This document shows positions 18,241 to 21,524 of a stretch of 64,000 nt of DNA, piece by piece. The position numbers and the translations under genes were made by a program. Position 1 is the first letter of the stretch. Each line of letters starts with the position of its first letter. Origin of the DNA: an uncultured Dehalococcoidia bacterium (lineage in GTDB: Bacteria; Chloroflexota; Dehalococcoidia; SHYB01); contig CAZKTO010000003.1 in assembly GCA_964555685.1 (NCBI GenBank), positions 556-64,555 on the forward strand, given 5' to 3'. A model generated the notes under the pieces. The model was not told where the DNA came from and did not search any database. It was given only the letters and a program-made list of their open reading frames with translations.

Positions 18241-18951
18241 ATGGCTGTCACGGTCCTCCTCGTCATCGCCTCCTACCTCGTGGGCTCCATTCCCACGGCC
18301 TACCTCGCCGTCCGGCTGGTAAAGCGCGCGGATATTCGGCGGTTCGGCAGCGGCTCCGTTTCGAGCTCCAACGTCGGCCAGGTGCTGGGCCGGTGGCCCG
18401 GGGTGATCGTGGGGTGCGCCGACATGCTCAAAGGCGCCGGCTGCGTGTGGATGGCCGCCGCCCTGGACCGGGACTTGGCGGAGCGGCTGGCGGCCGGCCT
18501 CGCCGCGGTGGCGGGCCACAACTGGTCCATCTTTCTCCGGTTCGATGGCGGCCGGGGGCTCGCGACGACGGTGGGCGTGCTCCTGGCCACGGTGCCGATG
18601 CAGCTCCTGCTCTTTATCATCATCGCCCTCCTGGGATTCACCGTGACCGGCAACGTCCCCCTGTGGCTCGGGGTCTCGACCGCGCTGCTCCCCTTCTGGG
18701 GCTACGCCCTCCAAGACGGGGCCGCCGTCGTGTGGGCCGATGGCGTGCTGGTGGTGATGGTCTTTCTGAAGCGGCTGGCGACGAACCTGGAGCGCCTGCC
18801 GGAGCGGGGGAAGGGCAGCGTGCTGCTCTGGCGCCTGCTCTACGACCGGGACACGCCAGAGCGGGAGGCGTGGGTCCATCGTCGCGCCGACGCCCCCAGC
18901 GCGCCCGCGGAGCCCGGAGGAGGCCCCGTGCAGGGGCCACAGGGGCCCTAG
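18241..18951 (+). CDS. plsY: glycerol-3-phosphate acyltransferase PlsY
   Basis: It contains YLVGSIPTAYL...GSGSVSSSNV...AGHNWSIFL and is multi-TM. Confidence 0.85.
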   Translation: MAVTVLLVIASYLVGSIPTAYLAVRLVKRADIRRFGSGSVSSSNVGQVLGRWPGVIVGCADMLKGAGCVWMAAALDRDLAERLAAGLAAVAGHNWSIFLRFDGGRGLATTVGVLLATVPMQLLLFIIIALLGFTVTGNVPLWLGVSTALLPFWGYALQDGAAVVWADGVLVVMVFLKRLATNLERLPERGKGSVLLWRLLYDRDTPEREAWVHRRADAPSAPAEPGGGPVQGPQGP

Positions 18952-18968
18952 CCCGTCTGGAGCGACCG

Positions 18969-19499
18969 ATGCAGTGCGCCACCCATCCGCAGATCGAGAC
19001 GCACGTGTCATGCCAGAAGTGCGGCAAGGCGATCTGCTTCCGCTGCATGGTGGAGACGCCGGTGGGCTACCGTTGTTCCACGTGCGCGCCGCGCCGCGTC
19101 AATGCGTTGCTCACCCTCTCGGGCGAGCAGCTGGCGCGAGCCGTCGCCGCGGGGATTGGCGTGGCGTTCCTGGGAGGCGCCGGCTGGGGGCTGATCAAGC
19201 GGAGCGAGATCCTCTTCGGCCTCTTGGCCATCCTGGCAGCGCTGGGCATCGGCTACCTCATCGGCGAGGCGGTGAGGGCCGCGGCGGGGCGTAAGCCCGC
19301 CCGGAGCCTGCCGTGGATCGCCGGGGCCTGCGCCGCCTTGAGCTTCCTCATCGGCAACGTCCTGTTCTGGCTCCTGTGGACGGACGTCTCCGTGAGCACA
19401 GCCCTCAGGCAATGGGACAACTTCGACGTGCGGGGCTCTACCTGGAACATCCTCTCCATGCTGCTGTCCGTCGCCATGGCGGCGTTCCGGTTCCGATAG
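18969..19499 (+). CDS. B-box/zinc-ribbon membrane protein (hypothetical)
   Basis: This is the internal ATG of ORF 18393..19499. The product starts MQCATHPQIETHVSCQKCGKAICFRCMVETPVGYRCSTCAP and is followed by 3-4 hydrophobic helices. Confidence 0.65.
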   Translation: MQCATHPQIETHVSCQKCGKAICFRCMVETPVGYRCSTCAPRRVNALLTLSGEQLARAVAAGIGVAFLGGAGWGLIKRSEILFGLLAILAALGIGYLIGEAVRAAAGRKPARSLPWIAGACAALSFLIGNVLFWLLWTDVSVSTALRQWDNFDVRGSTWNILSMLLSVAMAAFRFR

Positions 19500-19523
19500 G
19501 CAAGCGCCGCGTCCTCTTCGGGC

Positions 19524-19778
19524 TGTACTCGTCCAGATACATGCGTGACACCCGACTGTGTGCCCGTTCAGAAGGGTCCGGAATACATCCCTCAGAGTGT
19601 AGGACCCGGCTGCGACTCATTTATCCCTCGGCTCCGGTCACCCTCACAACAGCAGCGAAGTCAAGGTCTGCAACCCCGAAGGGGCGCCGCCTGAAGGGCG
19701 GCGGGCCTTGACGAGCTGCTACCATTCCGCGAACCGGAGCCGAGGAGCAAAGTGTCACTAATCTACTGGACGAGTACA
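19524..19778. ncRNA. candidate structured RNA/element (about 255 nt, nested perfect helices); family unknown, strand uncertain (minus slightly favoured)
   Basis: The perfect Watson-Crick complementary pairs are:
- 19524-36 with 19766-78 (13 bp)
- 19545-51 with 19752-58 (7 bp)
- 19574-79 with 19602-07 (6 bp)
- 19626-38 with 19733-45 (13 bp)
- 19651-56 with 19715-20 (6 bp)
- 19660-66 with 19706-12 (7 bp)
- 19685-91 with 19697-703 (7 bp)
- 19674-77 with 19681-84 (4 bp)
No credible ORF lies in this region. Confidence 0.45.
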
Positions 19779-19783
19779 CGGGC

Positions 19784-19812
19784 TTCCCATGCGCGGGGGC
19801 GTCGGCTACAAT
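19784..19812 (+). promoter_or_regulatory. candidate promoter TTCCCA-N17-TACAAT for the TPP-enzyme gene
   Basis: tacaat lies at 19807-19812, 54 nt upstream of the ATG at 19866. Confidence 0.35.
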
Positions 19813-19865
19813 AGCGCCGCTCTGTCCATCTTCAGAACGTCCCACCCAAGAAAGCGAGGCGCGCC

Positions 19866-21524
19866 ATGCCCCCGGTGACCGGCGGCCGGCTCATCGCCCG
19901 GGCCCTCAAGAACGAGGGCGTCGAGCACATCTTCACCCTGAACGGCGGCCACATCTACAACATCTATGAAGGGTGCGCCGACGAGGGGATCAAGATCATC
20001 GACGTCCGGCACGAGCAGGTGGCGGGCCACGCCGCCGAGGGGTGGGCCAAGGTCACCCGCAAGCCCGGCGTCGCCGTCGTCACTGCGGGCCCCGGCGTGA
20101 CCGACACGGTGACGGCCATCGCCAACGCCTACCAGGCCCCCAGCCCCATGCTCGTCATCGGCGGGAACGCCTCCCTGCGGGAGTGGCTCTCGGGCGGTCT
20201 CCAGGAGTTCGATAGCGTCTCCGTGCTGCGCCCCATCACCAAGTGGGCCCAGCAGTGCGCCCAGACCACGCGCCTGCCGTGGTTCGTGGCCACGGCCTTC
20301 CGGCAGGCGACCACCGGCAGGATGGGCCCGGCCTACCTGGAGGTGCCCATGGACATCCTCCACGGCAAGGCCGAGATGGACCAGGTGGAGTTCCCCACCA
20401 AGTACCGGACCGAGGCCAAGGCTCCCGGAGACCCCGAGATGGTGAAGGAAGCCGCCAAGGTCCTGCGCAACTCCAAGCGGCCCGTGGTCATGGCCGGGAG
20501 CGACGTCTGGTGGAGCGACGGCGCTGAGACGCTGCGCGCCTTCGTGGAGACGATCCGGGCGCCGGTCTTTCTCAACGGCATGGGCCGGGGCAGCATCCCG
20601 CCCGATCATCCCAATGTCGGCTCCATGGCTCGCCGCTTCGCCCTCACCCAGGCGGACGCGGTATTCCTCATCGGCACGCCCATCGACTTCCGCCTGAGCT
20701 ACGGGAAGCCGACCCTCATCAACGCGGATGCGAAGGTGGTCCAGATCATGATGGACGCGGGCGAGATCGGCCGAAACCGCGCCATCGAAGTGGGCATCGC
20801 GGGGAACGCGAAGCTCATCATGCAGCAGATCATGGACGCGCTGCCCGGCGCCGGCTTCGAGCCCACCGACGACTGGCTGGAGAAGGTCCGGGCCGAGGAG
20901 GCAGGTTTCCGCGCCAGCGATGAGGAGATGATCAAGAACAACCGGACGCCCATTCACCCGATGCGTCTGGTGGGCGAGATCCGCAACTTTCTGGACAAGG
21001 ACGCCACCGTCGTCGGCGATGGGGGCGACATCGTCACGTTCGGCGCGCGGGTCATCGGGATCCACAAGCCCGGCCACTGGCTGGACCCGGGCCAGTTCGG
21101 TTGCCTCGGCGTGGGGACTGGCTTCGGCATGGCGGCGCAGCTGGCCCGGCCCGGCAAGCAGGTCCTGATCTTGAACGGCGATGGCGGCTTCGGCCTCAAC
21201 GGCATGGACATGGAGACGATGGTGCGGTTCAAGCTGCCCGTCGTCTCGGTGGTGGCCAACAACGGCGGCTGGGCCCAGACGATCCACGGCGTGACGAAGA
21301 TGTACGGCCGCGCCCTGGGCTGCCAGCTCTCGCAGGAGACCCGGTACGACAAGATGGTTGAGGCGATGGGCGGGCACGGCGAGCTGGTGGAGCGACCGGA
21401 GCAGATCCGGCCGGCGCTGGAGCGGGCCTTCGCCTCGGGGCTGCCGGCCTGCCTGAATGTCATCACGGACCCCGCCGCGAGCTACGGCGAGATGCCGGGC
21501 CGCTCTCAGAAGCGCATCTCCTGA
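19866..21524 (+). CDS. thiamine-diphosphate-dependent enzyme (acetolactate synthase / oxalyl-CoA decarboxylase family)
   Basis: This 552-aa ORF has an N-terminal Pyr domain (RHEQVAGHAAEGWAKVT..PGVAVVTAGPG) and a TPP motif (LNGDGGFGLNGMDMET...VVANNGGW). Confidence 0.85.
   Translation: MPPVTGGRLIARALKNEGVEHIFTLNGGHIYNIYEGCADEGIKIIDVRHEQVAGHAAEGWAKVTRKPGVAVVTAGPGVTDTVTAIANAYQAPSPMLVIGGNASLREWLSGGLQEFDSVSVLRPITKWAQQCAQTTRLPWFVATAFRQATTGRMGPAYLEVPMDILHGKAEMDQVEFPTKYRTEAKAPGDPEMVKEAAKVLRNSKRPVVMAGSDVWWSDGAETLRAFVETIRAPVFLNGMGRGSIPPDHPNVGSMARRFALTQADAVFLIGTPIDFRLSYGKPTLINADAKVVQIMMDAGEIGRNRAIEVGIAGNAKLIMQQIMDALPGAGFEPTDDWLEKVRAEEAGFRASDEEMIKNNRTPIHPMRLVGEIRNFLDKDATVVGDGGDIVTFGARVIGIHKPGHWLDPGQFGCLGVGTGFGMAAQLARPGKQVLILNGDGGFGLNGMDMETMVRFKLPVVSVVANNGGWAQTIHGVTKMYGRALGCQLSQETRYDKMVEAMGGHGELVERPEQIRPALERAFASGLPACLNVITDPAASYGEMPGRSQKRIS

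Follow-up and report, generated by a model that had tools for sequence, protein, structure and literature searches.

A hairpin-rich intergenic element of an uncultured Dehalococcoidia bacterium is very probably a miniature inverted-repeat transposable element of an IS481-like lineage that lands 5 bp from predicted -35 boxes

The yeast retrotransposons Ty3 and Tf1 use integrases of the rve fold and are guided to their sites by the transcription machinery or by factors bound at promoters rather than by sequence. Among bacterial elements, the target of IS481 itself is a short palindrome, whereas the elements considered here are placed by their position relative to a promoter. Bacterial miniature inverted-repeat transposable elements (MITEs) include the Correia and RUP elements. 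Members of the IS481 family of insertion sequences (IS), as classified in ISfinder, are about 1-1.3 kb long and have TGT...ACA termini and a short target duplication, ranges that the relatives reported below fit. According to the accessible part of Guerillot et al. 2014 (PMC3942029), TnGBS, ISLre2 and ISKra4, which possess Mutator-like transposases, insert in a fixed orientation 15-17 bp upstream of the -35 box of sigmaA/sigma70 promoters; the same text links the TnGBS-type orientation to an asymmetry of the terminal repeats at the two ends. According to the accessible part of PMC10132070, ISAjo2-related elements of the IS1202 family insert in an oriented manner at dif/pdif sites, 5 bp away from the XerC side. 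Here we report on a 255-bp element at positions 19524-19778 (plus strand) of a 64,000-nt stretch of DNA, hereafter the window, from an uncultured Dehalococcoidia bacterium (assembly GCA_964555685.1, contig CAZKTO010000003.1). The source genome, G000, is a 3.03-Mb draft of 170 contigs that is 93.6% complete. An earlier note on this DNA had proposed a novel structured RNA gene, with a MITE-like element as the fallback. We conclude with high confidence that the element is a MITE derived from an IS481-like insertion sequence, which was presumably moved in trans and landed in the orientation that puts its right end 5 bp before the -35 box of a predicted host promoter.

A BLAST search of the source genome identified a second copy of the element (G000:C2:70240-70494), which is 100% identical over exactly 255 nt. 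In the pairwise alignment of the two loci the identity begins at TGTAC and stops at GTACA, and the flanks are otherwise unrelated. Each copy is bracketed by its own 5-bp direct duplication, namely CGCCG on contig C2 and CGGGC in the window (19519-19523 on the left and 19779-19783 on the right), the latter seen in the sequence, in the alignment of the two copies and at the empty-site joint described below. The exact 13-nt terminus occurs in this genome at the four MITE ends and at one site on contig C60; the C60 site, located within a coding sequence and not accompanied by the remainder of the repeat, was set aside as a chance match. Logan contigs from four metagenome runs were also aligned to positions 19200-20200. 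As a result, we identified in run X7 a 151-nt contig that fuses 19519 to 19780 and omits 260 nt (255 + 5), with five letters at the joint fitting both sides and the shorter side extending over 72 nt. This contig is single and has a depth of 2. Its identity to the flanks is approximately 93%, with 10 positions differing from the window, so that its source is a relative. The flanking gene pair is adjacent in 10 of 14 same-family genomes with a spacing of 96-188 nt, and the 366-nt gap between these genes in the window would measure 106 nt after subtraction of 260 nt, which is within the range of the relatives. Synteny around the second copy is weak: the divergent SBP/enoyl-CoA hydratase pair is kept in one of 11 orthologue loci (G006), where its spacing is ~234 nt, compared with 290 nt (550 minus 260) at the C2 copy. 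The identical copies, the target duplications and the empty site demonstrate that the element is mobile, and the 100% identity of the two copies indicates a recent insertion. Indeed, the element is short and non-coding, has inverted termini and copy-specific duplications, occupies more than one site, shares its ends with full-length insertion sequences and is missing from an empty site, all of which are features of a MITE.

The origin of the element can be traced through its ends. On the left, box 1 of the terminal repeat, TGTACTCGTCCAG (19524-19536), is the perfect complement of box 1 on the right, CTGGACGAGTACA (19766-19778). Box 2 reads GTGACAC on the left (19545-19551), 8 nt inside box 1, and GTGTCAC on the right (19752-19758), 7 nt inside box 1; all four boxes are given here on the plus strand. 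The last 24-39 nt of the MITE were matched in 24 of 400 other genomes of the class, often ~110-140 nt from contig ends, as is the case with collapsed repeats. In a complete genome (locus L038), the match forms the right end of a 1068-bp IS whose left end, TGTACTCGTCCAGA-7 nt-GTGACACC, resembles that of the MITE. This IS has a single open reading frame (ORF; 501-1487) for a 328-aa protein with the Pfam domains HTH_32/HTH_28 and rve. A high-GC IS of 1073 bp on a metagenome contig (locus L227) begins with the same 30 nt as the MITE, and its 332-aa transposase (102-1097) likewise combines a helix-turn-helix (HTH) region with rve. In L038 as in L227, the transposase frame closes ahead of the right repeat, and the TGA of TTGACA does not serve as its stop codon. 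The left ends of both full-length IS equal box 1 of the MITE. Both transposases are encoded in one open frame without frameshift and show the HTH_28/HTH_32 plus rve/rve_3 arrangement. The NCBIfam IS481 model (NF033577) scores 165.1 bits for the L038 transposase and 206.7 bits for that of L227, as compared with 55 and 98 bits, respectively, for IS3; the cut-off of NF033577, 224 bits, is above both scores, and the model is the best one by more than 100 bits and is covered by the L227 transposase at 282 of 284 positions. Since full-length IS share these ends, the 13+7 bp closing helix is, judging by its sequence, the bipartite terminus typical of this IS481-like group.

The same architecture recurs throughout the lineage. 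The consensus of 118 right ends is GTGTCACTAATcTACTGGACGAGTACA, with which the MITE agrees at 27 of 27 positions, and the box spacing of 8 nt at the left and 7 nt at the right is the same in the MITE as in the 14 left ends, all of which keep box 2, and the 118 right ends. Both ends of 33 elements were present in the retrieved DNA. Among these, 21 are full-length (1050-1152 bp, with TGT/TGA...ACA termini) and 12 are short (200-679 bp); short elements of 200-339 bp that share the ends of the MITE are present in other genomes. Perfect 5-bp duplications flank 11 of the 33 elements (7 of 21 full-length and 4 of 12 short ones), the chance expectation being ~1/1024 for each, and a duplication of four out of five bases flanks two elements. 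A tblastn search with the transposase of the lineage identified no transposase in the MITE, and only the MITE ends match the full-length IS, the 200-nt interior having no similarity to them.

The landing sites of these elements follow a precise pattern. Right ends were collected with a 27-nt exact query against one genome per species, which returned at least 118 stretches; the exact 27-mer collection (80 loci) samples solely the conserved-end part of the lineage. The matches listed include Dehalococcoidia/Chloroflexota, Acidobacteriota, Gemmatimonadota, Latescibacterota, Omnitrophota and others. Among relatives of the class, the DNA past the right end consists of five variable bases, TTGACA, a 17-nt spacer, TG and TATAAT (50 flanks). 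In the 79 distinct flanks listed, the bases at positions +6 to +11 are T in 75, T in 68, G in 65, A in 43, C in 53 and A in 35 cases, and there is a weak preference for C at +5 (46 of 79). We considered a flank promoter-like when a -35 box and a -10 box each matching the consensus in at least four of six positions were separated by a spacer of 16-18 nt. Among the 118 pooled distinct right ends, 100 have TT at +6/+7, 84 have TTG and 62 are promoter-like, whereas the corresponding numbers for the 14 left ends are two, one and zero. Shifting the register by 1-7 bases leaves 0-5 promoter-like right ends, as compared with 62 in the true register, and the background over all positions of the same loci is 0.29% (1537/523904). 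Even right ends without TT mostly keep a -10 box with at least four matches at the correct distance (14 of 18, against a background of 7.4%), and TGn precedes the best -10 box in 45 of the 118 right ends. In addition, four right ends sit 43-46 nt before the first base of a same-strand tRNA gene. The lineage inserts in one orientation, with a 5-bp duplication and with its right end 5 bp from a predicted -35 box. This fixed distance, overlooked in the earlier note, is the most interesting feature of the element.

Both copies in the source genome conform to this arrangement. In the window, CGGGC is followed by TTCCCA-17-TACAAT, 88 nt before a gene for a 552-aa thiamine-diphosphate enzyme (19866-21524, plus strand; Pfam TPP_enzyme_N, _M and _C, E 1e-37 to 1e-30). 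This predicted sigma70-type promoter of the host (19784-19812, plus strand) has its -35 box at 19784-19789 and its -10 box at 19807-19812, separated by a 17-nt spacer; the promoter scan found exactly one sigma70-like site in 19300-20000, where 0.1 were expected, and it lies outside the element, as the earlier note had said. On contig C2, CGCCG is followed by TTGACA-17-TAGACT, 73 nt before the enoyl-CoA hydratase gene. On the other side of the window copy lies a host gene for a 368-aa protein with no match among Pfam families (18393-19499, plus strand), whose end at 19499 is confirmed by the ORF list. Its stop codon is 24 nt from the start of the element, and the element is co-directional with this gene and with the promoter of the thiamine-diphosphate enzyme.

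Two further loci of the collection deserve a description. In L099 (G179:C1:380828-383854), two right ends stand in tandem on the minus strand, at 1487 and 1527, 40 nt apart, and the outer one is followed by CCGCC and then TTTGAA-17-TATAAT; it looks as if the first element survived only as a stump after another one had inserted at this promoter. In L169, ARAGORN calls a permuted tmRNA at 164-632 that overlaps three tRNA genes (Ala, Arg and Trp), and this call is almost certainly false.

The folding described for the element was confirmed. The helices listed in the earlier note all exist: perfect 13-bp inverted repeats are present at 19524-19536/19766-19778 and 19626-19638/19733-19745, the inverted-repeat search recovered the 7-bp pair 19545-19551/19752-19758, and the side hairpin and both tip hairpins (19674-19684 and 19685-19703) appear in the minimum-free-energy folds. 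Thus described, the interior (19552-19751) comprises the inner 13-bp repeat and the two tip hairpins. The plus-strand fold of a 276-nt stretch has -128.7 kcal/mol, compared with -96.8 +/- 5.3 in 200 dinucleotide shuffles (z -6.0), and the minus-strand fold has -134.9 kcal/mol, compared with -105.7 +/- 5.5 (z -5.3). None of the 200 shuffles folds as stably on either strand. The interior alone is also structured (z -4.8, 50 mononucleotide shuffles). Apart from the C2 copy, the interior has no further match in its own genome. In four sister MITEs of other genomes, the interiors are unrelated and yet just as rich in hairpins (z -4.3 to -10.7 against 30 mononucleotide shuffles for each). Strong folding is consequently characteristic of such elements in general and does not point to one conserved RNA. 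The interior is probably filler without sequence-specific function, which would at most stop read-through from the upstream gene.

Stability far beyond chance on both strands, an interior that remains structured without the termini and the location in an ORF-free gap are what a stand-alone gene for a novel structured non-coding RNA would show, in which the nested helices are the functional fold of a transcript of one strand. This headline of the earlier note did not survive the comparisons, and we consider it highly improbable. An Rfam scan of the whole window at the gathering score gave no matches, RNase P, SRP, tmRNA, 6S and riboswitches included; the sole sub-threshold match in a permissive scan of 19400-19900, mir-15 with 20.3 bits against a gathering score of 57.3, is attributable to chance. 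The genome-wide copy count, which the note itself had named as a way to refute an RNA gene, produced the identical second copy, and the target duplications and the empty site describe an insertion. Its outer helix of 13+7 bp is the terminal repeat common to the 118 right and 14 left ends of the IS lineage. A search for homologues was equally unfavourable: none of the 14 same-family genomes and none of the 400 further genomes of the class contains the interior, and a scan of the metagenome collection with an interior 25-mer gave no match. With respect to covariation, the lone variant seen is a MITE in run X7 (~5x flank depth, different left flank) with four substitutions, of which two are unpaired, one disrupts a pair and one yields G-U pairing, though solely on the plus strand, so that none is compensatory; and the sister MITEs fold as well with unrelated interiors. 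The abundance of hairpins in all sister MITEs examined, five of five, could instead reflect selection for structure, and the window copy starts just past the upstream stop codon, directly before the next promoter and co-directional with both, which would suit a co-opted MITE whose hairpin stack acts as a transcription barrier or insulator, or as a 3' structure that stabilises the upstream mRNA. However, none of the hairpins on the plus strand has a T-tract behind it, and a scan of this strand for terminators was negative; the C2 copy lies between divergent genes, where there is no upstream read-through to block; the site is empty in a relative; and completely identical copies speak for a recent insertion rather than a long-kept function. 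We therefore regard co-option as unlikely.

The constant distance between the right end and the promoter might also be read as an outward promoter carried by the element itself and donated to the downstream gene. This is hardly credible, because the identity of the two copies stops at the terminus, and the next 5 nt, the -35 box (TTCCCA in one, TTGACA in the other), the spacers and the -10 box all differ. The spacers are unrelated across the 118 sites, and 11 of the 33 elements have the 5 nt before the -35 box repeated beside their left end, which makes these bases target DNA. The MITE-less contig still has the promoter, with 19780-19852 retained, and this refutes a donation. As the copies share nothing past the terminus and the contig without the MITE retains this segment, the promoter belongs to the host. 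A more serious alternative is that the register arises from direct readout of TTGAC by the transposase together with purifying selection, without any role of RNA polymerase. The TTG triplet is indeed the strongest signal in the flanks (T 75, T 68 and G 65 of 79), the transposases have N-terminal HTH domains, and the weak preference for C at +5 suggests some reading of sequence. On the other hand, right ends that lack TT keep a correctly spaced -10 box well above background, TGn precedes the best -10 box in over a third of the sites (45/118), and the two copies of the source genome differ in the -35 box, which matches the consensus at four of six positions in the window. Direct readout appears to us doubtful, though it is not negligible. 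Recognition of the complex of promoter and RNA polymerase is favoured over pure TTGAC readout because the -10 signal persists where the -35 box is poor; it is put forward tentatively, its probability reaching an even chance at most, and no computation separates it from TTGAC readout plus selection.

A mechanism consistent with these observations can be outlined. The MITE would retain what the transposase needs, that is, two bipartite ends, each with a 13-nt terminal box and a GTGACAC box. A single-ORF IS481-like transposase of the HTH+rve (DDE) type, binding the two-box ends, would mobilise it in trans, and the 8/7-nt spacer asymmetry between the ends may set its orientation. Insertion created the 5-bp target duplication, and the duplicated bases probably correspond to promoter positions -40 to -36. 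In the usual promoter geometry, this region adjoins the DNA gripped by sigma region 4 and serves as a binding site for class II activators and for the C-terminal domain of alpha. With the duplicated bases at -40 to -36, the strand-transfer sites would abut the DNA held by sigma region 4. The transpososome may then find the promoter as a whole instead of simply reading TTGACA, most simply via the RNA polymerase holoenzyme or via sigma region 4 at the -35 box. In its full form, the proposal is that an IS481-like lineage of several phyla, whose transposase has the retroviral integrase fold, docks on the holoenzyme through sigma region 4 at the -35 box and inserts both its own copies and its MITEs exactly 5 bp before active promoters, which is a speculative but real possibility.

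Several observations weigh against the interpretation of the element as a promoter-directed MITE of an IS481-like lineage. Only two copies are assembled in the source genome, which is few for a MITE, and the search of its assembled part revealed no cognate transposase; a cognate multi-copy IS may simply be absent from the draft assembly. Among the 33 elements with both ends, 20 show at most three of five matching flank bases. We attribute these 20 cases to recombination between copies or to decay, which is conjecture. The insertion sites were de-duplicated by exact flank alone, so a few orthologous insertions have perhaps been counted twice, and the flanking promoters are consensus predictions. 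The loss of harmful insertions could add to the promoter enrichment, although it does not explain the single-base register. Finally, the interior resembles no full-length IS and is more structured than the termini explain.

Other IS481-like sequences were observed in the source genome and beyond. Contig C37 has a degenerate, frame-broken and distant IS481-like copy (G000:C37:5538-6473) with ends unlike those of the MITE. Stubs of the transposase C-terminus are located at G000:C5:42373-42501 and C28:26705-26881; they share 51% amino acid identity with the L227 transposase, and each is followed by an end, ...GTCCGATATCTCCTGACCCAGTAC, that is unlike the MITE's. The C5 and C28 relics belong to a different IS481-like lineage from that of the MITE. 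The nearest plasmid-borne relatives of the transposase, from Thermus and Meiothermus, share 47% identity with it and bear no annotation beyond 'integrase core domain-containing protein'; the ends of these elements are also unlike those of the MITE. In one such 47%-identical relative, on the Allomeiothermus silvanus plasmid (L240, NC_014213.1 118715-120369), the integrase-core ORF crosses TTGACC and TTGCCC before its stop, at ~1280-1320. At positions 33-62 of L227, TTGACT precedes the left terminus of the full-length IS by 18 nt, and the first six bases of the IS, TGTACT, resemble a -10 box; flanking DNA may sometimes give the transposase a -35 box, as judged from this single case. In runs X3, X4 and X7, the summed contig depth reaches up to 155 at the terminal repeats (19744-19777 and 19506-19573), compared with 2-10 in the flanks, which means that many other elements with these ends exist in sediment and groundwater metagenomes. 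The loose ends of metagenome contigs past 19785 read GCAA..., which would make TTGCAA hexamers at other insertion sites.

In kind, the element is thus an ordinary MITE rather than a novel RNA, and the landing rule of its lineage is the part worth pursuing. For annotation, strongly folding intergenic elements such as these belong under MITEs and not under RNA genes, and their two outer helices are, as far as the sequences tell, transposase-binding sites. The target rule (right end, 5 bp, -35 box) is precise and holds across phyla, and the elements mark predicted promoters in uncultivated bacteria. It rests on a transposase superfamily other than that of TnGBS, ISLre2 and ISKra4, the only bacterial promoter-homing transposons that we found in print. 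If docking on the holoenzyme is true, this would be a second, independently evolved bacterial system of promoter homing and a prokaryotic counterpart of Ty3/Tf1 targeting, as well as a natural 'safe-harbour' rule of insertion under which the promoter of the host stays intact. Should the landing rule stem from docking on RNA polymerase, the lineage would offer a tractable model for an integrase-fold enzyme that reads the transcription machinery.

Similar to the IS481 family (type element IS481 of Bordetella pertussis; NF033577), the relatives have a single ORF of ~330 aa with HTH and rve, TGT...ACA termini and a 5-bp duplication, but their model scores are under the curated cut-off (206.7 and 165 versus 224 bits). 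Ty3 and Tf1 differ from the present elements in being eukaryotic, in moving through RNA and in using other host factors, and a tethering of the kind they show would be an inferred property here. In the searchable literature, which left ISfinder/TnPedia and subscription journals outside its scope, we found no report of an IS481-like element, or of its MITE, being directed to promoters upon insertion; the accessible passages of PMC9208149 and PMC12859917 contain none for an IS481-like element, and IS481 is mentioned zero times in the accessible part of PMC3942029. The TnGBS, ISLre2 and ISKra4 elements, so far as that part of the paper describes them, share with our lineage the DDE chemistry, a fixed distance and orientation at promoters and an asymmetry of the ends (here, the 8- versus 7-nt spacer). 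They differ in the enzyme, which is Mutator-like (p-MULT) there and rve/IS481 here by Pfam and NCBIfam, and in the distance from the -35 box, given in the same part as 15-17 bp and found here to be 5 bp. As the accessible part of PMC10132070 presents them, the ISAjo2-related elements of the IS1202 family are likewise oriented and inserted 5 bp from a site to which a DNA-binding protein of the host attaches; however, dif/pdif sites are not promoters, and these elements are 1.5 kb long and belong to another family. Bacterial MITEs in general, of which MITEAba12 (PMC6382973) is an example, are likewise short and non-coding, with inverted ends, duplications, IS-derived ends and strong folding, whereas the MITE described here additionally inherits a promoter-adjacent landing site.

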